This document shows, in pieces, positions 24,950-36,540 of a DNA stretch of 45,090 bases (positions are counted from its first letter, which is position 1; every line of letters begins with the position of its first letter). Under the pieces are notes generated by a model. It ran no database searches. It was not told the DNA's origin and saw only the letters and a list, made by a program, of their open reading frames with translations. The DNA lies in the sequence record SRR20825006_1275; one strand, given 5' to 3'. Made by a program: the position numbers and the translations under genes.

Positions 24950-25052
24950 GGATGCGCCTCTTGTCTAGACATCACCAAGGTCAGCGAGGTCACGTCTTTA
25001 TCACCGACCCGAGGTGAAGACAACCTGGCGCTCTCGGTTGTCGGCGTGGCGC

Positions 25053-25349
25053 TCATGACTTGCGGTTCACCGCGCTGATGACCTCGACCCCCATCCAACC
25101 ACCACCGATCAGACAAAAGATGGAGCCCAGGATATAGAGAGGCATCCCGGGAGTGCCGCCATGTTGGATGACGTTTCCTCCCCAGGCATCGATAAGATCT
25201 TGGGCGCAGAAGCCCGCGATGAAGAGCGCTCCGCCGAGCAACAGAAAGATCAACGCGATCACGGCGCAGCCCCAACCTCCGGCGTCACTGGCGCTCGTCT
25301 TCAATACTTGCTGCCCAGATGTGGATTCAGGCGCCCCTCGACCTTGCAT
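25053..25349 (-). CDS. Small hypothetical membrane protein (two TM segments)
   Basis: AGGAG RBS before ATG 25349; two hydrophobic Gly-rich segments. Confidence 0.65.
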   Translation of the reverse strand: MQGRGAPESTSGQQVLKTSASDAGGWGCAVIALIFLLLGGALFIAGFCAQDLIDAWGGNVIQHGGTPGMPLYILGSIFCLIGGGWMGVEVISAVNRKS

Positions 25350-25390
25350 CGCGATCTCCTGTCTGTGTGAGGCGCCCAGGGTATCAGCTA

Positions 25391-25966
25391 TCAAAGGTTC
25401 GAACAAAGAGGATGCTCGGCGCAAAAGGACTCGAGCGCGTCATCATCGAGATCGCCAAGCTCGAGTAATATCAGGTAAGGATCTCCATCCAATCCGAGCG
25501 CCTTCGCGAACGCGGGTTCGGTCTTCAAGCCAGCGCGCTTGAGCGCGCGAACGATGCTCCGAAGCCCCTCACCGTAGCGCTCGAGCAAGCGGTGCTCCGC
25601 GAGCATATGTCTGTAGGCATTTTGAGAACGCGTGGGCAATGGTTGCGCGAAGACTTCGAAGAGAAACCCATCGAACGTGAAGCTCACCACACAGGACTCG
25701 TGCCCCTGCGCGATAGCTCGCTGACATCGGTAGTCCTCGAAGTCGCTGACATGATCCTCCAAGATGTGAAGGAACACGTCGATGTCGTGAACCTCGCAGA
25801 TCACGTCGATGTCACTGCCCTCGATGTCGATATCGATCGGTATCGTCCCTGCCCATATGGGATCAAAGCCTGACAACAGCGTCATCAACCCCGAACGCTT
25901 CAGACAAAGTGACGCTTCGCGTTGGCGCTCGGTGCCATGTTCGAAGTCATGTTCGAAGTCTTGCAA
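25391..25966 (-). CDS. DUF4269-like protein (nucleotidyltransferase-like G..DxD motif)
   Basis: DPIWAGTIPIDIDIEGSDIDVIC, QNAYRHMLAEHRLL and GLKTEPAFA...GDPY match the DUF4269 pattern as recalled; TTG start after GGAGGAG. Confidence 0.8.
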   Translation of the reverse strand: MQDFEHDFEHGTERQREASLCLKRSGLMTLLSGFDPIWAGTIPIDIDIEGSDIDVICEVHDIDVFLHILEDHVSDFEDYRCQRAIAQGHESCVVSFTFDGFLFEVFAQPLPTRSQNAYRHMLAEHRLLERYGEGLRSIVRALKRAGLKTEPAFAKALGLDGDPYLILLELGDLDDDALESFCAEHPLCSNL

Positions 25967-26010
25967 ATCACTCCTCCAGTCTCGGCCCGCGAACCGACAA
26001 CCTTCCGCCC

Positions 26011-26091
26011 GCAACCGAAGGGGGGGACCCGTTCCCCAACCTGGGTGGTGATGTGCACCAGGTCGGGGAACGGGTCCCCCCCTTCGGTTGC
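26011..26091. repeat. 81-bp palindromic element E1, related to E2 at 33435-33515
   Basis: 27-bp perfect arms GCAACCGAAGGGGGGGACCCGTTCCCC (26011-26037 and 26065-26091), extendable to 34 bp with one mismatch. Confidence 0.9.
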
Positions 26092-26171: not shown

Positions 26172-29100
26172 TTATAGGACGGCGAGCCCGTGTCGTCCGT
26201 TGGCGCTCTCGACGAAGAGCGTGGAGCGACCGTTGCCGAGCTTTTCGACGACGATGCGTGTGTCGACGCGCTCCTTGAGGCTCTCGACGTGGCTGATGAT
26301 ACCGATCTGTTGGACGCTCTCCTGTTGTAGCTGACGCAAGGTCGCCATCGCCACATCGAGCGTTTCCTGATCGAGGGTGCCGAACCCCTCGTCGAGGAGG
26401 AGTGTTTCGACAGGCATCTCCACGCGGCGGAAATCAGACAGTCCGAGCGCGAGCGCGAGTGAGACGAGGAACGTCTCGCCGCCAGAGAGCGTCGTGAGCG
26501 GGCGGTGAGCATCGGCCTGATGGTGGTCGATGACGGCGAAGTCGAGCTTTGGCTCGCCCTGATCTCCGACCGCGACCGCCAGCGAATACCTCGGGGCGAG
26601 GCGATCGAGGCGCATGTTGGCGCGATCGACGAGCTCTTGCAGGTTCAAGCTCTGCGCGAACTGTTTGAAGCCCTCGCCGTCCTTGGTGCCGATGAGGCGG
26701 TGGATCGTCTCCCAGACGCGGTATTCGCTCTGGAGCGCGTCGAGCTCCTCGCGCATGTGTTCGCTGCGCTTCTTTGCCTTCTCCTGCGCTTCGACCTGTT
26801 GCTTCAAGCCGCCGCGCTCGCTGAGCAGTTCGTCGACCTCCTTGCGAACGCGCGCGTGCTCCTTCTCCCACTTCTTGGGCGTGAACTCATCGAGGCGCTC
26901 GTCCTCGGGGCGCTGCTCGCCATGCGATTCCATCTGCGCGGCGAGGCGTTCTTGCTCGCGCTTGGCGTCGGCGATCTCTTGTTCGAAGGTGGCGAACTCA
27001 TCCTCGAGCTTTTTGCGATCCTCTTTCGAGAGCAGCGACTCGCGAAGCGCTGCCTCTTTCTTGCCGAGTTCTTTCTCGAGGTCTGCGAGGTTTTGCTCGA
27101 GCTCCTCGAGCGCGCTCTTCTGCTCTTCGAGTTGTTTGGTCTTCTCTTGCAGCGAACCTTGCAGGCGCTCGAGCCTGGACTTGCTTTCGCTCGCGGCCTC
27201 GCGCGCCTCGACCTGCTGTTTCTCGGCGCTCGAAATCGCCTCCTCGAGTTCTTTTTGCACGTCCTCGGGAGCGCGCCCATCGAGCAACCCCTCGCGCTCT
27301 TTCTCGAGCGCCTCGACGGCCTCCTTGCGGCTGGCGAGTTCCTTGTCGATGCGCGCTTGCTCGGACCTGGCGGCCTCGAGCCTCTCCATCGAGCGCGCGC
27401 GCTCGTTCTCGAGGCGCTCCTTTTCTTTCCTGGCCTGGTCGAGCTTCTCCATCGCCTGCTCGTAGCGCCCGCGCAGAGCGCGGGCGCGCTCGAGCGCGCC
27501 TTTGAAGTCTGGATTGTCGGGGTCCTCTCCCAACGAGATCTTTGCTCTGGAGAAGCGGGACGCGAGCTCATCGCGAGCGCTATCGCGTTGCTCCTCGACC
27601 TCAGCGAGGTGGTCCTTGGATTCGTGAAGCGACGCCTCGAGGAGCTCGAGCTTGCTCGAGAGCTGTCCTTGCTCGACCTCGATTTTTTGGTGATTCTCAC
27701 TGGCAAGTCGCAACGCCTCGCGAGCACTCTCGAAGGACTCGACCAACTCGTCGAGCTTCACGAGCGCGCTCCGGGCATCATCCTGTTCGCGTTTGAGGTC
27801 GGCGCGTTGCACGACGAGGCCATCGCGCAGTTTGCTCTGCTCCTCGCTCGAACCGGGGAAGATCTCGATGGCGACAAACCCGATCCTATGGCGAGCGCCA
27901 TTGTAGCGCTCGAGCAACTTGTCGAGCTCCTTGCGCAGGCCCGTGCGGCGCGCCTCGGTGTTGGCCTTGGCGCTCTCGAGCGCGGCAAGATCGAGCTCCG
28001 CCTCGCGGATCTCATCGTTGGTCTCGGTGACCTGTTTGGTGAGCGCTTCCTTTCGCCCGACCAACTTCTCGCGATCCGACTCGAGCTGCGCCTCGACCTC
28101 GTCGAGCGATTGCTCCGCGATGAGCGGGTGGTCCTCGCTGCCGCACAGCGGGCACGCCTCGTGTTCGTCGAGGTTCTTGCGGTGATCCGAGAGCACGAGC
28201 TTGTCTTCGACCGAGCGCAACCCGATCGAGATCCCCTCGAGGTTCTCTCGCTGCTCCCCGATCTGCTTCTCCAGCACCTCGAGTGATTTCTGGCGCGCCT
28301 TGATGTCGCGCTCCTGAGAGGAGAGCGTGCGCTTGTTGTTGGCCTGTTCGAGGCGCTTTTCGCACAACTGCTCGTGCAGCCTGAGCGCCTCGTCCAACGT
28401 CATCAGTGATTCTCTGGCGTCATCGAGCTTGTGCTCGAGGACCTCGCGACGACGCGCCGAGGAGGCTGTGCCCTCGAGCATCTCGTCGAGCATCGCCTTG
28501 GCCGCAGCGAGCGCGTCCCGTTGCGGCGCGACGCGCTCGCGGGCTTCCTCGAGTTGTTTGTCGACGACCTCGAGCTTTGCTTTGGCGGAGCTCGCGCTCT
28601 CCTTTGCCTCCTGACATTTCGAGCGCGCACGTTCGACGCGAGCGCGCACATCGGCGTAGTGGGTTACCTTGGCTGCGAGCACCTCGAGGCGAAGCTCCCC
28701 ATCGAGCAGCGATGCGCCATCGACATCCTCGATCGCTGCGCGAGCGCTCTCCTCGGCGCTCGCGGCCGCGGCCAGCGCCTCTTGCTGCTCTTTTTCGCTG
28801 GCGGCGAGCGCCTCGAGAGCTTCGGTGTTCTCCTCGGCGCGTATCTTCACGCGCGCGAGCTCCTTGCTGGCGGACTCCTGACGTTGGACGATGTTTCGCG
28901 CGCTCTCGAGGTCAGGCCGCGCCTTCTCGAGCGCCTCGCGAGCTTTGACGAGCGCCTCCTGGCGCTCGCCGAGGGTTTTGGCCGCCTTTTCATTGGCCTC
29001 GCGCGCTGACTTCGCGTCCTCCTCGAGCTTGCCGTGCGACTCTTGCAGTGATTTTACCTGCTCGCGCACCTCGTCGAGCTTCTCGAGCGTGGGCTCTGCG

Positions 29101-30014
29101 GGTCTGCACGCGCGATCGAGCTCGAGGCGCGCGAGGTCTTCCTGGCGATCCTTTTGCGCCTTCTCACGCTCCTTGATCGCCTGCGCGATCTGCTTGCTCT
29201 CCTCCTCGATCTCACTCAGGCGCTCGAGCCACTTGATGCAAGCCTCGGTGGTCTCGAGATCCGCGCGTGCCAGCTCCAGCGCCCCCTCGAGATCAGCGAG
29301 GTGCTCGCGAAGCTCGCGCTCGTCCTCCTCATCGAGGATCTGTAGGCCGTCGAGTTTGGCGAGCAGATCCTTGAGATCGCGCTCCACGTCACGCCGCTTC
29401 GCCGACGCGCGTTGCCCGATCAATTTATACTCGTCGGTGCTCGTGAGCTTCTCCAGGATGCTCGCCTTCACCTCCTCGTCCGCCTTGAGGAACGCGGCAA
29501 ACTCGCCCTGCGCGAGCAGAATACTGCGCTGGAAATCCTCCACGCTCATCCCCTCGAGGATCTCCTCGAAGTGAGGCTCGAAGTACTTGAGGCGGTTATC
29601 ACTGACGATGAGCTTCTCCTCGCCCTCCTCGTCATACGTATAGAGGCTGCGGATCGGGTCCTGGAGCGTGCCGCTCGCTTTCTCATACGCGCGACGACAC
29701 TCCCAGACGGCGCGGTAGTGGTGGCGCTCGCCATCCGCATTCTTGAGGCTAAAGTGAACCTCGGCGCGGCATCGCCCGGTGCCATAGCTCATGACATGGC
29801 GCGCGTCGGTCTCGGGGCGCCCCGTGGCGCGCGTGAGCCTCGGCGTAACGCCGAACAACCCGAGACAGATCGCGTCGAGGATGGTGGACTTGCCCGCCCC
29901 GGTTTGACCCAGGATCAAAAACAGCGACGCCTGATCGAGATCCTTCTCGAAGTCGATCACGTGCTCGCCATAGAGCGAGTTGAGGTTGAGTGTCTTGACC
30001 TTGTGGAGCTTCAT
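26172..30014 (-). CDS. sbcC: SbcC/Rad50 SMC-like ATPase
   Basis: Walker A GQTGAGKS, Q-loop LAQGEF, long coiled coils, zinc hook CPLCGS, signature LSGGETF and Walker B LLDEGFGTLD. Confidence 0.96.
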   Translation of the reverse strand: MKLHKVKTLNLNSLYGEHVIDFEKDLDQASLFLILGQTGAGKSTILDAICLGLFGVTPRLTRATGRPETDARHVMSYGTGRCRAEVHFSLKNADGERHHYRAVWECRRAYEKASGTLQDPIRSLYTYDEEGEEKLIVSDNRLKYFEPHFEEILEGMSVEDFQRSILLAQGEFAAFLKADEEVKASILEKLTSTDEYKLIGQRASAKRRDVERDLKDLLAKLDGLQILDEEDERELREHLADLEGALELARADLETTEACIKWLERLSEIEEESKQIAQAIKEREKAQKDRQEDLARLELDRACRPAEPTLEKLDEVREQVKSLQESHGKLEEDAKSAREANEKAAKTLGERQEALVKAREALEKARPDLESARNIVQRQESASKELARVKIRAEENTEALEALAASEKEQQEALAAAASAEESARAAIEDVDGASLLDGELRLEVLAAKVTHYADVRARVERARSKCQEAKESASSAKAKLEVVDKQLEEARERVAPQRDALAAAKAMLDEMLEGTASSARRREVLEHKLDDARESLMTLDEALRLHEQLCEKRLEQANNKRTLSSQERDIKARQKSLEVLEKQIGEQRENLEGISIGLRSVEDKLVLSDHRKNLDEHEACPLCGSEDHPLIAEQSLDEVEAQLESDREKLVGRKEALTKQVTETNDEIREAELDLAALESAKANTEARRTGLRKELDKLLERYNGARHRIGFVAIEIFPGSSEEQSKLRDGLVVQRADLKREQDDARSALVKLDELVESFESAREALRLASENHQKIEVEQGQLSSKLELLEASLHESKDHLAEVEEQRDSARDELASRFSRAKISLGEDPDNPDFKGALERARALRGRYEQAMEKLDQARKEKERLENERARSMERLEAARSEQARIDKELASRKEAVEALEKEREGLLDGRAPEDVQKELEEAISSAEKQQVEAREAASESKSRLERLQGSLQEKTKQLEEQKSALEELEQNLADLEKELGKKEAALRESLLSKEDRKKLEDEFATFEQEIADAKREQERLAAQMESHGEQRPEDERLDEFTPKKWEKEHARVRKEVDELLSERGGLKQQVEAQEKAKKRSEHMREELDALQSEYRVWETIHRLIGTKDGEGFKQFAQSLNLQELVDRANMRLDRLAPRYSLAVAVGDQGEPKLDFAVIDHHQADAHRPLTTLSGGETFLVSLALALGLSDFRRVEMPVETLLLDEGFGTLDQETLDVAMATLRQLQQESVQQIGIISHVESLKERVDTRIVVEKLGNGRSTLFVESANGRHGLAVL

Positions 30015-30060
30015 CGTCCCATTCCGTGGCTCTGGAGCGCGCGACGCGATTCATCAAAAA

Positions 30061-31350
30061 TCACTTGGTGCCGCCGCGACGCTCCTTCATCTCCTCGAGC
30101 TGCTCGTCGGTGAGCAGCGACATAAACGCGGTCAGGATCTCGTCCGTGGGAGGCTGGCCGTGCTTGATCAAATACATCTTCTCGAACACATCCGTCGGCG
30201 TCAGCTCGTTGAGCGGCACCGAACGCAGCGCCGAAGGGTCCACGCCGCCAAAGTTGTTCGGGTTGACGAGCGTCTCTTTAAAACGCACCAACCTCGGGCG
30301 CTGCCCGGTGTCGAACGACGAGAGCACCTCGTCGAGCTTCATCATCCCATCGGGCATCGGCGCCTCGACGTGGAGATCCAGATACAGGTAGGGCCGAAGC
30401 TCCTGCTCCCACTCCAGGTCCTTGATGCGATCGAAGAGATCCTCTGGCGCGCCGAACATCTCGAAGACAGGTCGCCAAGCCGGGACCTCGACCTCCTCGA
30501 CGGTCGCGTGCGCTCTCGGCTTGTTCGGGTCCACATCCACGATCAGGATATGGCGAGGCGTGCGGGACTCGGTCACATCAGTAGGGATAGGAGACCCTGG
30601 ATACCAGGCGTTCGGGCCAGCGATCTCGATCTTCTGGTGCACGTGCCCCAACGCCACATACGAGTAGCGCAGATCAAAGATGTCCGGCGGCAAGCTACCC
30701 AGCGCTTCGATCAAGTGAATCGGCGTGTGATAGGCGCCCTCGACGTCCGTTTTTCCATCTGGATAACAGGTCAAATGGCCCGTGGTGAGGAGCGGGACAT
30801 CCGGGTACTTCTCCTCTGCGATGTCTGCCATCTTCGAGTAGAGCCCGCGAAACTTGTCGATCATCGAGTCGCGGATCTCCATCGGCTTTAGACCCGCGGT
30901 GACCACGCCCAATCTGCTCTCGTGCATGTAAGGGACGGCCATGACGACCGCCTCGACCGCGTCGCCCGCCTCGGTGTAAATCGGGCAGAGGCAACGCTCC
31001 CAGGTGTCCTCGTCGCCGGTCAAACCGCCGACGACGTGCACGTTGAGCGCCTCGAGCACCGGCGCAGGGGCGTCGAGCCGCGACGCCGAGTCGTGGTTTC
31101 CGCCCGTGACGATGATCTGCCGAAGCTTTGTCTCGCGACCGCACCGCGCCAGGAAATCATAATAGATCTTCAGGCAGCGCGCCGAAGGTTGGACATAGTG
31201 GAAGGTGTCACCACCGTGCACGAGGATGTCCACCTCGCGCTCGTTGATTTGCTCGATAAGCCAATCAAGGAAGCGCAGATGCTCTTCCTCACGCGGCGCT
31301 TGCTCCATGCTCACGCCGAGGTGCCAGTCGGATGTGTGCAAGATCCTCAT
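30061..31350 (-). CDS. sbcD: SbcD/Mre11 nuclease subunit
   Basis: MRILHTSDWHLG, GGDTF, GNHDS, YVALGHVH and YPGSP; directly upstream of sbcC. Confidence 0.96.
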   Translation of the reverse strand: MRILHTSDWHLGVSMEQAPREEEHLRFLDWLIEQINEREVDILVHGGDTFHYVQPSARCLKIYYDFLARCGRETKLRQIIVTGGNHDSASRLDAPAPVLEALNVHVVGGLTGDEDTWERCLCPIYTEAGDAVEAVVMAVPYMHESRLGVVTAGLKPMEIRDSMIDKFRGLYSKMADIAEEKYPDVPLLTTGHLTCYPDGKTDVEGAYHTPIHLIEALGSLPPDIFDLRYSYVALGHVHQKIEIAGPNAWYPGSPIPTDVTESRTPRHILIVDVDPNKPRAHATVEEVEVPAWRPVFEMFGAPEDLFDRIKDLEWEQELRPYLYLDLHVEAPMPDGMMKLDEVLSSFDTGQRPRLVRFKETLVNPNNFGGVDPSALRSVPLNELTPTDVFEKMYLIKHGQPPTDEILTAFMSLLTDEQLEEMKERRGGTK

Positions 31351-31562
31351 GATCGTCCTCACTCGCTACAATAACCCTGCCCGTCTACTCGCGAGCAAGC
31401 GCCGCGAAAGCACAACACTCCGCGACCAGACAACGCCTTCGCGTTGCCCAGACAGAGCCTAGTAACGCCATGTCAGGGTGCCAAGTGGATTTGCCGAGGA
31501 CGGTGATCGTATCACGATGACACCGTCCTGTTGACAGGTCCGCATCCCGGCGCGTGGTGCGC

Positions 31563-32201
31563 TCAAGGACCGCCAGACCCGATGGGGGTGAACAGGACGT
31601 CGAACTTGACGACGGCGAGCGTCGACTGGATCGCGCCCTTCTCGAACTTCCAGGTCTTGATCTCGGCCAGGACGCACTCCTTGAGCTCCTTGCTCTTGAC
31701 CGTATCCTGGCGCGACACCGCCGCCACGATCTCGCCGCTCTCGGACGCCGTGAACTGCAACGAGATCTCGCCCTTGACCGAGGGGTCCTTCTCGAGGATG
31801 CGCTGGTAGCACTGCTGCATCTTGAAGCGGCGCTTGATCACATACTCTTTGAGGAACTCGGGCTTGAGCTTGCCCTCGATGAGCAAGGTCTGCTCGATGG
31901 GATAGACCAGCGCATACGTCGGCGCGCTGCCCTGGTTGCCATCTCCGCCTGCCTCGGGGCAGTCAGGACACGCCGGGCACTCCTTGCCATCAGCCGTCTT
32001 GACCTCGGGGCAGTCTGCCGGCGTCCCCTCGGAGATGCCGAGGTTGCCTGCGGCGCCCTCCGAGTTTTTGACGTAACCGAAGAAACCACCCGCGCCCATG
32101 AGTAAACCGACGACAAAGGCAAGCGTGGCGACCATGCCAGCGACCACGCTGCTGCATCCTTTCCCCTGGTTGCCGACCGCTTCGGTAGGGACTGTGCTCA
32201 T
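31563..32201 (-). CDS. Membrane-anchored protein with an AgmX/PglI (TonB-C-like) C-terminal domain
   Basis: N-terminal TM segment, Cys/Pro-rich linker, and C-terminal pattern QCYQRILEKDPSVKGEISLQF...CVLAEIKTWKF. Confidence 0.75.
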   Translation of the reverse strand: MSTVPTEAVGNQGKGCSSVVAGMVATLAFVVGLLMGAGGFFGYVKNSEGAAGNLGISEGTPADCPEVKTADGKECPACPDCPEAGGDGNQGSAPTYALVYPIEQTLLIEGKLKPEFLKEYVIKRRFKMQQCYQRILEKDPSVKGEISLQFTASESGEIVAAVSRQDTVKSKELKECVLAEIKTWKFEKGAIQSTLAVVKFDVLFTPIGSGGP

Positions 32202-32326: not shown

Positions 32327-33277
32327 TCAAAACAACCCATCGAGCGGGCTTTTGACCCCGAACGGTCGCTCGATCACGTGCGTGTACAACATGGTGGTTT
32401 GCAAGCGCTTGTGACCGAGTAACGTCTGGATGGTGCGAATATCCACGCCCCCCTCGAGCATGTGCGTGGCGAACGAGTGGCGCAGCGTGTGCGGCCCGAC
32501 CTTCTTGTCGATGCCGCTCGCGGCCGCTGCCCTGGCGAAGCTTCGCTGCAAGGTGCTCGGGTGCAACGATCCTCTCCCCGCCCTCCCCTTGGCATCGATC
32601 GAATCCCTGGAAGCAGGAAACACAAACTGCCACTGATGGCTCAACGAAGCCTTCGGGTATTTCTTCGAGATCGCGGTCGGAAGCGCGACGTAACCTCGAT
32701 TTCTCTTCATGTCTCGCGTGTGACGCGACTTCACCGCCAAGACCTGTTCGCGCAAAGACCCGCGAAGTGCATCAGGTAAAATTGCCACGCGATCCCGGTT
32801 TCCCTTCGTGTCCCAGAGGAGGATCGCGCGCTGCTTGAAGTCGATGTCTTTGATGCGGATGCTCAACAACTCCGATACACGCAAGCCCGCGCCATACAAC
32901 AACTTCGCGTGTAAGGTGTACTTCTCCTCGATGTGCTCGAAGAGCGTGGCGACCTCCTCCTTCGAGAGCACCACGGGCAAGCGCCTGTCACGCTTCGCGC
33001 GATCCAACCCCTCGAACTCGCCAGGCTCCTTGCCGAGCACGTGCTTGTAGAAAAACACTAGCGCACATAGCGCCTGATTTTGCGTCGACGCCGCCACCGA
33101 GCGCCGGGATGCCAGGTCGTTGAGGAACGCGGTGATATGTTCGGGGCCAAGCTCGTCGGGGTGCTTCCTGTCATGGAACAGGATGTATTGCTTCACCCAG
33201 TAGGAGTAGAGCTTCGCGGTGCTCGGCGAGTAGTTCTTTCGGCGCAGCGTCGTGCGCAACTTCGGTATCAGCTTCAT
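32327..33277 (-). CDS. intI: Integron integrase (tyrosine recombinase); apparently cassette-less (In0)
   Basis: N-terminal VAASTQNQALCALVFFY and RLPVVLS; catalytic R (GLRVSE), K (TKG), HTLRH, LGH and Y (TMLYTHV); the integron-specific insertion VALPTAISKKYPKA...WQFVFPA; C-terminal SPLD. Confidence 0.93.
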   Translation of the reverse strand: MKLIPKLRTTLRRKNYSPSTAKLYSYWVKQYILFHDRKHPDELGPEHITAFLNDLASRRSVAASTQNQALCALVFFYKHVLGKEPGEFEGLDRAKRDRRLPVVLSKEEVATLFEHIEEKYTLHAKLLYGAGLRVSELLSIRIKDIDFKQRAILLWDTKGNRDRVAILPDALRGSLREQVLAVKSRHTRDMKRNRGYVALPTAISKKYPKASLSHQWQFVFPASRDSIDAKGRAGRGSLHPSTLQRSFARAAAASGIDKKVGPHTLRHSFATHMLEGGVDIRTIQTLLGHKRLQTTMLYTHVIERPFGVKSPLDGLF

Positions 33278-33434
33278 ATCTAGAACCTCTGCGGTTGCCG
33301 GTGAGTGATTGACGTCCGAGGCATTGACCGAAAGGTCAACACCTCCATGTCAGTTTTCGTCAACCCGAGGACAGATGTTGCGCGCAGCGACGAGAACTTC
33401 TCCGATAAACACTGGAAAACCCGCGGTTCGCCGA

Positions 33435-33515
33435 GCAACCCGAGGGGAGGAAAAATCGCCCGACCTGGGTGTCATATTCACCAACCCCGGGCGATTTTTC
33501 CTCCCCTCGGGTTGC
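33435..33515. repeat. 81-bp palindromic element E2, related to E1
   Basis: 28-bp perfect arms GCAACCCGAGGGGAGGAAAAATCGCCCG (33435-33462 and 33488-33515) with a 25-nt spacer, about 160 bp upstream of the intI start. Confidence 0.9.
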
Positions 33516-33977
33516 GAGCGAGAGGTCCCCAATCCCACCACCCCGAAACGAGCGCTCGTGGAAAGAGAACGCGCGCCCGAAAAGGCAAAAAAAACACTCC
33601 ACCAGGAGGCATGACATCGATGTCACGCCTCGCCACGAAGAAGCCACCCGACTCAATTTACAACAGTAAAGATAACCCCAGAATCTCCATACCAAACGGA
33701 GCAGACAGAGGGTCTCTGACAAAAACTTCATATCGCCCGAGATCATGCGTCAAAAAATTGACGCATGGGCGATGCTTCGCTGTTCGAGGGCCATGGAGCG
33801 TTAATTTTCTTCGCAACAATCTCGAAATCACTGCATCCCATACACCGAAGCTCTCGTGAGAAATGGGAGCAGAAGATTATAAATGTCTGAAACGGTCGAG
33901 AATATACACTGCTTCGAGAAGCATGGCTTTCAGGCATTTCCTTCGAGATCTAAAATTCGACAAACGGAGCCACGAGA

Positions 33978-35711
33978 ATGGTTGCACAGCACATCACGCA
34001 CAGGTTGACGTCCAAGGCATGCCTCACACTCCTCCCCGGGCTGATCGCGATGGGGTTGTTGGCCGGTTGTGGCAATAACAACGACGAAAACAACACGACC
34101 GCGAACAACAACACCGCCAATAACACTGCGGCGAACAACACGACCGCGAACAACACGACCGCAAACAACACGACCGCAAACAACACCGCGGCCAACAATA
34201 CCGCCGCGAATAACACTGCGGTCAATAACACGGCCGCGAATAACACCGCCGTCAACAACACCGCTGCGAACAACACCTCCCAGAACATGAACCCGATGGG
34301 CACCGCCAGCGTCCAGGTCTTGCACCTCGCTGACGGCGCGGGAACGGTGGATATCTACGCCAACGACACCCTCCTGATCGACGACCTCGACGAGAAGGCT
34401 GGCACCAACTTCTTCCCCGTGCCAGCTGGCGTATCACTCAAGCTCGACGTCGTCGCCGGGGACGCCACAGACAACTCCTCGCCGGTCGAAACCGTCACGC
34501 TCGACACCGGCCTCCCGGAAGACTCGACCTACATCGTCGCGGCGACCGGTGATGCCACCGCCGCAGAAGGTGATGACGCGGCGTTCCGCCTCGTCGCCAT
34601 CCCTGGGGCGAAGTCGAGCCACGATGACGCGGGGACCGTCTCGGTGATGGTGATCCATGGCGTCGACGATGCTCCGACGGTGGATGTCGCCCTCGACAAC
34701 GCGACGACGCTCGGCGCAGATCCCACCATCCCCGCGCTCGAGTTCGCTGGCTATACAAACACTGGCGGAGAGGCGGCCTACCTCGACATCGATCCGACCG
34801 CGACGCTTATCCCCGGCGTGGCGCTGATCGATATCAACGTCGCTGGCGGACCGTTCGTCGCGGGATTCCAGGCTGGCCTGACAGGTCTCGAAGGTCAGGC
34901 TGCCGTGATCGCCGCGACAGGTTCGCTCGAGGATGGCACCTTTGGCCTGACCGCGTTCCTCGCCATCGAGGGGGAAACCCCATCGACTTCCGCGGGCCTC
35001 GACCTGCCCGCGGCGGCGCGCCTCCAGGTCGTGCACAACTCGGCTGACCCGGCAGCCGCCAGCGTGGATGTCTACGCGGCAGGTGCCCTGTTGCTCGATG
35101 ACTTCGCCTTCCGTACAGCATCCCCCTACCTGACAGTCCCATCGGGCACCGAGATCCCAGTGGTGGTCGCCGCGCCTGATTCGACCGATGACAGCGCGCC
35201 AGTCGCTGGCCCCGTAAACGTCGAGCTCGATCCTGGCACGACGACCATCGCGGTCGCCTCGGGTGTTGTTGGCGCAGAAGGGGACGCAGCCTTCGCGCTC
35301 CTGACCACGGAAGGGCTCGAAGCAAACGCGGGTGAAGATATCGAGGTCAAGATCCACCATGGTTCGCCAGACACGCCCGCTGTCGGCGTGCGCGCTGATG
35401 GCGCAGAGGCCAACATCATCGACTCGTTTGTCTACGGTGATTTCGTCGGATACGTGCCGCTCCCCACGAGCACCAACACGATCCTCGAGGTCATCAACCC
35501 CGCCGCAGATGACGTGACCGTCGTAGAGACCGCCGCCGCGATCGACTTCAGCATGTTCTCCACGCCCGTCTTTGTCGCCGCGAGCGGTTCCTCCAACCTC
35601 GACGCTGACGGCGCCGATGTCCTCCCCGACGAGGCCGCTGCCATCGCCTTGATCGCAGTGCTCCCGGATGGAACAGTGGTGACCGTCCCGCTCCAAGCAG
35701 AGCCGCTCTGA
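33978..35711 (+). CDS. Lipoprotein with an (NNTxA)n linker and tandem DUF4397-like beta domains
   Basis: Lipobox LAGC; repeated motifs VQVLHLADGAGTVDIY, VIHGVDDAPTVDV, LQVVHNSADPAAASVDVY and IHHGSPDTPAV; GGAG RBS. Confidence 0.85.
   Translation: MVAQHITHRLTSKACLTLLPGLIAMGLLAGCGNNNDENNTTANNNTANNTAANNTTANNTTANNTTANNTAANNTAANNTAVNNTAANNTAVNNTAANNTSQNMNPMGTASVQVLHLADGAGTVDIYANDTLLIDDLDEKAGTNFFPVPAGVSLKLDVVAGDATDNSSPVETVTLDTGLPEDSTYIVAATGDATAAEGDDAAFRLVAIPGAKSSHDDAGTVSVMVIHGVDDAPTVDVALDNATTLGADPTIPALEFAGYTNTGGEAAYLDIDPTATLIPGVALIDINVAGGPFVAGFQAGLTGLEGQAAVIAATGSLEDGTFGLTAFLAIEGETPSTSAGLDLPAAARLQVVHNSADPAAASVDVYAAGALLLDDFAFRTASPYLTVPSGTEIPVVVAAPDSTDDSAPVAGPVNVELDPGTTTIAVASGVVGAEGDAAFALLTTEGLEANAGEDIEVKIHHGSPDTPAVGVRADGAEANIIDSFVYGDFVGYVPLPTSTNTILEVINPAADDVTVVETAAAIDFSMFSTPVFVAASGSSNLDADGADVLPDEAAAIALIAVLPDGTVVTVPLQAEPL
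34089..34283 (+). repeat. In-frame 15-bp tandem repeat, 13 units encoding NNT(T/A)(A/V)
   Basis: AACAACAC(G/C)..-type units with synonymous variation, read directly from the DNA and its translation. Confidence 0.9.
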
Positions 35712-35734
35712 GGCACACCGCTGACGACATAAAC

Positions 35735-35796
35735 CGGTGAGATAGAAACGAGATGGGCGCGCCAACTGGCGCGCCCATCTCGTTTCTATCTCACCG
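35735..35796. terminator. Perfect 30-bp-arm palindrome between convergent genes; probable bidirectional terminator
   Basis: CGGTGAGATAGAAACGAGATGGGCGCGCCA-ac-TGGCGCGCCCATCTCGTTTCTATCTCACCG. Confidence 0.7.
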
Positions 35797-35815
35797 CGTC
35801 AACTGGCCGATACGC

Positions 35816-36439
35816 TCACCCCTCGTGCACCAGACCGCCGAAGCGCCAGCTCCCATCTTCGCCGCGAGTCGCCTTGTAGAGCGCCGTGTTGGGGATATGG
35901 CGCAGAGCATCCGCATGCTCGGGGAAGGTGATCGTCAAAAAGATCCTCAACGCGCCACCGTGCGCGCCGAGCCCCACGACATCAGGAGCGTCGGGATCAT
36001 CGAGGATCTCATCGAGCCGTTGACGGAACCTGTCATACATCGCGCGGCGAGATTCTCCGCCGGGGAAGGTGCGCTGGAGCGAAGGCTCGTCAGTAGGATC
36101 GATGTAGAACCACATCCGCATGATCTCTTCACCGAATGCCTCGAGGTTTTCCTCGTAGGTGCTCCCCTCGGCCTCCCCCATATGCACCTCTCGAAACGCG
36201 GGGGAGATCTGGCACGCGACCCCCGCTCTGTCGGCGACAATTTGCGATGTCACCGACGCGCGCTGCAAATCACTCGAGACGACGAGCCCCAACCCGAGCG
36301 ACTCGCAGACCTCTGCCAGTGCGTTGGCTTGCGCGATCCCGTTGGCATTGAGTGGCCTGTCTATATGCCCCTGGAACTTCCCTGCGACGTTCCAATCCGT
36401 TTCGCCGTGGCGAAAGAAATAAACGGTCTTCTCACCCAT
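35816..36439 (-). CDS. Histidine phosphatase (phosphoglycerate mutase-like) family protein
   Basis: RHGETDWN, SSDLQRA, E..MGEAEG, AHGG and IPNT; GAGGAG RBS. Confidence 0.9.
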   Translation of the reverse strand: MGEKTVYFFRHGETDWNVAGKFQGHIDRPLNANGIAQANALAEVCESLGLGLVVSSDLQRASVTSQIVADRAGVACQISPAFREVHMGEAEGSTYEENLEAFGEEIMRMWFYIDPTDEPSLQRTFPGGESRRAMYDRFRQRLDEILDDPDAPDVVGLGAHGGALRIFLTITFPEHADALRHIPNTALYKATRGEDGSWRFGGLVHEG

Positions 36440-36540
36440 CACTGGCTCCTCGAAAGTGCAGCGCGTCTTCACGCGCGGTGAGATCTGACATACGATACCG
36501 AGACATCTTGTCACAACCTGAAATCTCGAGGCATCTCGCG

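Follow-up and report, generated by a model that had tools for sequence, protein, structure and literature searches.

We analysed a stretch of 45,090 nucleotides from sequence record SRR20825006_1275 (hereafter the window, always at its full length), in which an integrase gene, intI, is encoded on the minus strand. The product is a marine myxobacterial chromosomal integrase of the In0 type with a remodelled loop, and it is a variant of a known family. A first-pass annotation of this DNA, made from the letters without database searches, had described the gene as a catalytically intact integron integrase that lacks the residues that read an extrahelical base of attC. The features at the centre of the argument are:

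32327..33277, minus strand: intI, an intact integron-type tyrosine recombinase of 316 amino acids (open reading frame, profile and structure matches)
32561..32602, minus strand: codons for residues 226-239 (S-I-D-A-K-G-R-A-G-R-G-S-L-H), the beta4-turn-beta5 hairpin (HMMER and MAFFT alignments, model)
32630..32815, minus strand: kept contacts to the extrahelical G, namely W155 (32813-32815), K206-Y207 and W216 (32630-32632) (alignment and published roles)

The open reading frame at 32327-33277 is a full-length integron integrase (IntI). It scores 382.8 bits over positions 2-315 of 315 of the NCBIfam profile TIGR02249 'integron integrase', for which the curated cut-off is 265 bits, and this alignment to the IntI profile, a check proposed at the outset, confirms the family. 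Pfam Phage_integrase and Phage_int_SAM_4 (a SAM-like N-terminal domain) match it as well. In HMMER searches the top solved relative is VchIntIA (PDB 2a3v; E 7.4e-74, 40% identity), followed by the archaeal XerA (E 3.5e-31). The AlphaFold model, for which a 62-sequence alignment was the input, has a mean predicted local distance difference test score (pLDDT) of 89.6 and superimposes on the chains of 2a3v with template modelling (TM) scores of 0.81-0.84, compared with 0.36-0.58 for the other listed recombinases. Catalysis by tyrosine recombinases depends on an R-K-H-R-H-Y set, and the corresponding R133, K158, H263, R266, H289 and Y298 are invariant across the 62 sequences and identical in 2a3v. 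The IntI-specific insertion with its alphaI2 helix (a modelled helix spans residues 201-206) precedes beta4-beta5 and differs from 2a3v by single-residue gaps only. The two alignments and the model thus bear out the earlier claim that the catalytic residues and the IntI-specific insertion are all present.

Contacts to the extrahelical bases

To our knowledge, the VchIntIA complex is the only solved integrase-attC complex, and the His pair and Pro are treated there as hallmark readers of one extrahelical base. In the available text of its description, T12'' is inserted between the stacked H240/H241 and the highly conserved P232 of the non-attacking subunit, a clamp that acts in cis on that subunit, while G20'' is contacted by Q145, W157, K209, Y210 and W219 in VchIntIA and by K156, R168, K219, Y220 and W229 in IntI1 (PMC3053210). 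HMMER sets D-A-K-G-R-A-G-(gap)-R-G-S-L-H of the window enzyme opposite D-P-E-S-D-V-M-R-R-H-H-M-N of VchIntIA, so that P232/H240/H241 become A229 (or a gap)/G236/S237 and the loop is one residue shorter. MAFFT moves the missing residue to the Pro position, and under both alignments the Pro and the His pair are absent. The first-pass annotation, which had Pro and both His replaced in a loop one residue shorter at about 32560-32605, was therefore right about both the change and its place (residues 226-239, 32561-32602). The hairpin itself is retained in the model, with a five-residue turn between strands 221-227 and 233-237 at high confidence, and G236 and S237 fall in the second strand.

At the positions that contact G20'', the window enzyme has K143 (as in IntI1), W155, K206, Y207 and W216; both tryptophans, reported as kept at first reading, are indeed in place as W155 and W216. 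Judged by these alignments, the pocket for the extrahelical G is kept and the pocket for the T is lost.

To place these residues among homologues we used the query, 269 database sequences and one genome-derived sequence, a set of best matches to the query that is hence biased towards relatives. At the H241 position 257 of the 270 sampled homologues have His; at the H240 position the residues are His (199), Tyr (28), Trp (15) and Phe (10), together 252 of 270; and at the P232 position Pro occurs in 197 of 270. Trp is universal at the W219 position (window W216; 270 of 270), and the W157 position (window W155) is Arg in 233 and Trp in 8 of the 270. Of the 271 rows, 24 have the loop shortened by one residue. 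A quick IQ-TREE analysis of 94 rows, comprising all 24 short-loop rows and 70 drawn at random from the remaining 247, recovered a clade of 16 sequences (the query, P0001-P0014 and the IntI of genome G019) with a Shimodaira-Hasegawa-like approximate likelihood ratio test (SH-aLRT) value of 99, and the short, Pro-less loop is common to this clade. Some sequences of its sister group (support 96) bear the labels Myxococcales and Deltaproteobacteria.

The two His positions vary across the clade (GS, GA, HH, WH, EP, WH, HH, RH, EA, SH, SH, RP, AP, RH). The pair is absent in four separate branches (query+P0001+P0002; P0005+P0009; P0012; P0013), and P0203 is a further sequence counted as His-less. The homologues closest to the window enzyme, at 99% and 85-86% identity, read RGS and RGA and do not retain the RHH that would have marked the change as a private degenerative one; clade members at 54-62% identity are mixed (HH, WH, RH, SH, EP, EA, RP, AP). 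The distribution supports the short, Pro-less loop as a lineage trait of a well-supported IntI clade, not a private lesion, and inside that clade the loss of the His pair happened at least four times. The clade is small. A library of representatives at 50% identity holds it as the single sequence P0014 (55%), with the other listed matches at ≤52%, and a search for members at E ≤ 1e-95 found 2 of 113 genomes of the class and 3 of 401 genomes of the phylum sample. The third phylum-sample match, G344 (54% identity), has an ordinary DP...YH loop and canonical attC sites. We found no printed account of a natural IntI without these histidines, although supplementary IntI alignments might already show such variants; the only literature match for H250/H251/P242 with IntI1 was PMC3053210, as far as its available text goes.

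Selection on intI and the surrounding locus

A contig of a Myxococcota metagenome-assembled genome (G001:C140, locus L002) carries a syntenic orthologue with 86% identity and the loop R-G-A. The entire 45-kb window is collinear with this contig at 79-88% nucleotide identity, interrupted by only three gene-size insertions or deletions (indels). Between the two genomes, intI has a nonsynonymous rate (dN) of 0.099 and a synonymous rate (dS) of 0.742 (ratio 0.133; 46 of 316 residues differ), which is within the dN/dS range of seven neighbouring genes (0.034-0.185). In residues 216-245, which hold the altered loop, dN is 0.015 and dS 0.717 (ratio ~0.02), with a single amino-acid difference (S237A) against nine codons that differ only synonymously. 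The C-terminal core (residues 246-316) is similar, with dN 0.025, dS 0.552 and 3 of 71 residues changed. The IntI-specific insertion (residues 176-215; 32633-32752) evolves far faster, with dN 0.32, dS 0.718 (ratio ~0.45) and 17 of 40 residues changed, among them K205A and Y207F beside the G-pocket residues; at equal dS its nonsynonymous rate is ~20 times that of the adjacent loop.

A copy of the IntI protein at 99% identity occurs on a metagenome contig of the Joint Genome Institute (JGI), and every copy seen (the window gene, this copy and the 86% orthologue) has an intact frame. In 19 of the 23 runs listed (from 16 studies; metagenomes of marine and hydrothermal-vent origin), half or more of the words sampled from the window are present, and contigs from four metagenome runs have the same arrangement, for example a 31-kb contig spanning 24000-35764. 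The loss of the histidines is older than the split of the window and G001, and the derived loop has stayed nearly fixed since. The dN/dS comparison suggested at first reading thus reveals purifying selection over intI and over its altered loop. Given this selection and the intact frame in every copy, intI is not decaying, and the proposal of 'a decaying In0 integrase' is contradicted by a ratio of 0.133 at dS 0.74 and of ~0.02 in the loop.

On either side of the gene lie the following features:

26172..32201, minus strand: conserved core genes sbcC (26172-30014), sbcD (30061-31362) and an open reading frame of 212 amino acids (31563-32201)
33278..33434, no strand: 157-nt spacer from the intI start to hairpin H2, the expected place of attI and promoters
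33435..33515, no strand: hairpin H2 of the R1 palindrome family, 81 nt, ends GCAAC...GTTGC, stem perfect over 28 bp (folding, R1 model)
33528..35808, plus strand: 2.28-kb segment absent from G001, with 450 nt of non-coding DNA, a DUF4397 lipoprotein gene and H5 (collinear comparison)
33978-35711, plus strand: the DUF4397 lipoprotein gene, without an orthologue in G001
35735..35796, no strand: H5, a perfect palindrome (62 nt) that separates the DUF4397 gene from the convergent histidine-phosphatase gene
35816..36514, minus strand: histidine-phosphatase core gene, whose G001 orthologue ends ~13-30 nt from H2

The names sbcC and sbcD are presumptive, from a reading of the translations and a Metallophos match, not from a family test. 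This sbcC/sbcD-like pair, a putative hairpin-cleaving nuclease, lies two genes from intI in a palindrome-rich genome, which may be coincidence.

No canonical attC was found in the window by a heuristic that combines R''/R' motifs with folding into bulged hairpins. The heuristic is noisy, although it picked out the canonical attC in a control locus, and we relied on it only together with a covariance model and synteny. The covariance model, made from the attC sites of a clade relative, reached a maximum of 18.3 bits in the window, on an ordinary terminator hairpin. Rfam gave no family match in the window, and on the attC-like loci none except a spurious microRNA match to a palindrome. No attI is recognisable in 33278-33434, where it must be kept in mind that attI sites have no general model; a GTTGCGC stands 100 nt upstream of the intI start and was not counted as attI evidence. 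The segment at 33528-35808 occupies the exact place expected for a first cassette, yet it has no attC, and in G001 the histidine-phosphatase core gene lies close to H2, which makes the intI flank chromosome backbone and not cassettes. The earlier observation that there is no canonical attC nearby is therefore upheld by the heuristic, the covariance model and the collinear core flanks together. A complete integron would have at least two attC sites, or one within ~4 kb, 5' of intI, and the window locus has neither; what it has is an intI above the family threshold with no attC nearby, which is the definition of an In0. According to the available text of one survey, In0 elements account for 356 of 3116 IntI genes in complete genomes (PMC9024848).

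The DUF4397 lipoprotein starts with a long Asn-Asn-Thr-Ala repeat (34080-34300). In this part, metagenome contigs skip forward or step back by 70-128 nt, so the repeat number varies between populations. Similar N-terminal repeats start at least 13 other open reading frames in G001.

What the integrase may recombine

The clade has attC sites of its own. The IntI of G019 (59% identity; loop G-R-H-H-M-H) has the same short, Pro-less loop and is not syntenic with the window. Three repeats of 123-135 nt at ~920-nt spacing lie within 3 kb upstream of this gene (L038, G019:C232 1-3254), in a cassette region that is AT-richer than the integrase gene. In the consensus fold the R box has 8 bp and carries TAAC/GTTA, the spacer is unpaired and one base bulges out of the L box; a covariance model of the repeats has 41 matches in G019, which form runs at ~1-kb spacing on several contigs. 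G019, also a Myxococcota metagenome-assembled genome, thus holds a large sedentary chromosomal integron, and the clade does run classical integrons. In G344, the IntI, a more distant one from Myxococcota, lies near canonical 91-nt GCCCAAC...GTTGGGC attC sites.

The same attC model finds seven places in the sister genome G001, six of them at E 4e-11 to 1.6e-4 and each alone on its contig. These six elements share both L-box blocks and the bulge with the G019 sites, with a compensated C-G to A-T change, and may be read as solitary or relic putative sites of the clade attC type. Scanned across 41 relatives, this type occurs in three (33 matches in G019, four in G001 and two in G040); the clade IntI occurs among the 41 in G001 and G019 only, and both carry the clade attC type. 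Solitary elements of this kind would fit the published idea of single attC sites lacking integron-integrase (SALIN), which is accompanied, in the available part of the preprint, by cassette insertion at genomic GWT sites (bioRxiv 10.1101/2022.09.11.507474).

So, what does an integrase without its T clamp do? We consider it somewhat better than an even bet (probability roughly 0.55) that this is a working, vertically inherited integron-family recombinase without a cassette array ('In0'), in a clade for which the T clamp is dispensable and the G pocket is kept. The stacked His pair that clamps the distal extrahelical T would be dispensable in this clade, where it was lost several times; in the window lineage it was replaced by G-S/A, after which selection held the replacement loop almost unchanged. 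The enzyme would still recombine folded single-stranded hairpins, and recognition would depend on the G pocket, on the spacer left unpaired at the hairpin centre and on non-specific contacts to the backbone. It would act either on incoming cassettes or on solitary, attC-like sites of the clade type located elsewhere in the genome, of the kind seen in G001. The main effect of losing the clamp would be weaker strand choice or a less stable synapse, not a loss of catalysis.

Published deletion and complementation data for extrahelical bases make such an enzyme plausibly still active. As far as the available text shows, deleting any single extrahelical base of VCR2, a Vibrio cholerae repeat (VCR), did not reduce recombination, deleting all of them from two short attC sites had no noteworthy effect on bottom-strand delivery, and these bases serve chiefly for strand selectivity (PMC5027507). 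The available account of a mutational study has a single IntI1 substitution, D161G, regaining much activity on a complemented VCR (PMC2095811). We therefore hold, with moderate confidence, that folded sites plausibly remain substrates of an IntI that has no T clamp, though its selectivity would be altered.

Several points weigh against this interpretation. In the same account, complementing all three VCR bases lowers IntI1 activity from ~1e-1 to 3.8e-5 (PMC2095811), which suggests that the pocket can matter. No recombination substrate was identified within the window, and the sites elsewhere in the genome are known from the sister genome G001 only. Five of the six G001 elements have no AAC/GTT at the R-box position and have GC-rich closing stems instead, and the solitary elements directly follow long open reading frames, in the manner of terminators (L059, L061, L063, L065, L067, L069); they may be relics or another class of repeat and not live sites. 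Purifying selection shows that the protein is used and says nothing on what it is used for, and the fast-evolving IntI insertion would fit loosened attC binding.

This last point belongs also to an alternative that we hold possible and, on balance, unlikely, in which the recombinase is kept for a job other than cassette recombination, for example Xer-like recombination or inversion on a double-stranded site, or the resolution of hairpins or palindromes. Conservation of the catalytic core and the new loop would then go together with drift in the parts that read attC, as the ratio of ~0.45 in the alphaI2 region would lead one to expect. The array is absent at the locus in both the window and G001, yet the core and loop are strongly constrained, and the locus has stayed fixed between core genes across dS 0.74. 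IntI also retains an ancestral activity on double-stranded DNA, according to the available text of PMC4792948. However, the full IntI-specific insertion is retained, as are W155, W216 and K206, of which W155 is rare (8 of 270 homologues) and common to VchIntIA; the sister genome has attC-like elements of the clade type, and no candidate double-stranded site was found in our analysis.

A second alternative takes up the first-pass suggestion of an IntI lineage re-targeted to a different hairpin, and it involves three further features:

2417-2575: two back-to-back hairpins of 83 and 75 nt between convergent genes
25035-26005: window-specific 971-nt insertion with a DUF4269 gene, beside H3
26011..26091, no strand: hairpin H3, 81 nt, an R1 member downstream of sbcC that adjoins the 971-nt insertion

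Bulge-free hairpins that end in AAC...GTT do exist, as first noticed, at 33435-33515 (H2), 26011-26091 (H3) and 2501-2575, the last with a 35-bp stem and GCACAAC...GTTGTGC ends. H2 has an orthologous copy in G001 with compensated stem changes. H2 and H3 belong to a family, R1, of near-perfect palindromes of 81-91 nt with conserved CCGA-GCAAC...GTTGC-GGGC ends and apex and copy-specific stems of 28-35 bp, in which 11 of 30 pairs are changed on both sides (four sequences). The R1 model finds at least 29 places in G001 at E<0.001 (150 of 1450 candidates scored), several of them at contig ends, one weak place (45.8 bits) in the clade member G019, and the family in none of 40 other relatives (model search). 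Among 20 inspected copies, AAC...GTT is present in 16 and absent in four, and the conserved part is CCGA-GCAA...TTGC-GGGC; none of the 20 has an unpaired central spacer or conserved bulge, the stems being perfect from the AAC inward. The unpaired spacer and extrahelical bases of an attC L box are likewise lacking in H1, H2, H3 and H5.

R1 has just two copies in the window, and two of the three gene-size indels (25035-26005 with the DUF4269 gene, and 33528-35808 with the DUF4397 gene) begin 4-14 nt away from them. These junctions with G001 lie outside the hairpins, not at the G-to-TT crossover of a cassette boundary. Direct repeats of 8 nt, AGGTTGTC, which contain GTT, flank 25035-26005, and roughly 20-nt imperfect direct repeats occur at the other insertion. 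We set aside both AGGTTGTC and the ~20-nt repeats as integron crossovers; they are off the hairpin GTT and may be due to chance. One G001-like metagenome joint crosses 25031-26006, from another strain. Among the listed joints of the four runs none crosses 33528-35808, a result that is neutral either way, as contigs cannot show rare excision.

Could the His-less enzyme recombine these bulge-free palindromes (GCAAC...GTTGC) as dispersed insertion sites for single accessory genes? We regard this as quite improbable. The palindromes and the enzyme do occur together, in the window (two copies) and in G001, with one copy 158 nt upstream of intI in both genomes; the stems vary with full compensation, both window copies adjoin gene-size indels of which there are only three in 45 kb, and a Y1/RAYT (REP-associated tyrosine transposase) match is lacking in G001, as against 21 of 41 relatives that have one. 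The co-occurrence that the first-pass annotation proposed to test is thus seen, but within a single lineage, in which it is confounded by descent, and the clade member G019 lacks the family apart from its one weak place. Copies without AAC...GTT, the absence of a central spacer, bulge or clustering, and junctions off the GTT all speak against integrase sites. Because there is very little intergenic space at the gene 3' ends that hold the palindromes, adjacency to indels in a sample of two is weak evidence. We conclude that re-targeting to these hairpins is unsupported, given a copy-rich dispersed family with no attC features and junctions outside the GTT, and it is undercut further by the classical bulged attC sites used in G019. 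The most fitting interpretation of the R1 hairpins is a dispersed palindrome family, specific to the lineage and located at the 3' ends of genes, that is probably unrelated to the targets of the integrase. The more specific picture, in which an IntI lineage without the T clamp uses scattered R1 palindromes, one of them at the attI position, as a dispersed, array-less integron, seems to us very improbable; if it were true, both hairpin-adjacent, strain-specific genes of the window would be its products.

Some further observations concern the palindromes themselves. Other long perfect palindromes close other genes in the window and in G019, and the arms are perfectly paired despite divergence between R1 copies (G001 loci L011-L029). 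The apical loops of orthologous hairpins look reverse-complemented between the genomes while the flanks keep their orientation, both at 33460-33490 (L002 9790-9820) and at 26040-26065 (L002 17240-17270); such a flip is the expected product of recombination between hairpin arms. For H5 the R1 model gives 33 bits and the attC model 7.7 bits; its AAC/GTT triplets are internal, 11 bp inside the stem. We rejected it as an attC on account of its perfect palindrome, its convergent genes and the 7.7 bits, and read it as terminator-like. Metagenome contigs stop at its centre (35764/35767), and one contig of 62 nt is H5 alone.

Early decay, in which the integrase would have outlived its array as a remnant without function and, as yet, without stops, would account for the missing array, the loss of residues conserved in 95% of homologues and the fast alphaI2 region, but it is barely credible for a gene that is syntenic between the window and G001, has an intact frame in all copies and dN/dS of 0.133 over dS 0.74 (0.02 in the changed loop), and lost its histidines before the genomes split.

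Comparison with known systems

A working In0 integrase without the T clamp would offer a natural test of the share that the clamp has in site recognition, strand choice and synapse stability, and it bears on why array-less In0 integrases are kept. The clade gives matched pairs for this purpose, His-bearing with an array and His-less without one. For annotation, an In0 integrase that is 'missing' hallmark residues need not be a pseudogene.

The closest well-characterised system is VchIntIA (2a3v), which has the same family, fold, catalytic residues and IntI-specific insertion as the window enzyme. The two also share the uncommon Trp at the W157 position along with W219, K209 and Y210. They differ at P232/H240/H241, where the window enzyme has A or a gap, G and S in a turn one residue shorter, and in that no VCR-like array lies alongside the window gene. 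In0 elements as defined by IntegronFinder likewise have a threshold-passing intI without nearby attC, and the class is already known; by comparison, the window intI is chromosomal, syntenic in two diverged genomes, under purifying selection and equipped with a derived DNA-reading loop. The sedentary chromosomal integron of G019 is of the same clade and has the same loop length, but its integrase keeps the His pair and adjoins an array of bulged attC sites.

There is also some likeness to the SALIN/attG route, in the solitary attC-like elements of G001 and in the single accessory gene proximal to intI in the window. The differences are that the G001 elements are mostly without AAC/GTT and follow long genes, and that the window insertion has no attC of either type. 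The R1 palindromes, for their part, resemble dispersed palindromes of the kinds known as repetitive extragenic palindromic (REP), enterobacterial repetitive intergenic consensus (ERIC) and miniature inverted-repeat transposable element (MITE) sequences: they likewise occur in tens of copies at gene 3' ends, have a conserved apex and termini, and coincide with assembly breaks. In contrast to these, R1 copies are 81-91 nt long with near-perfect, copy-specific stems of 28-35 bp, and they occur in G001 without a RAYT.

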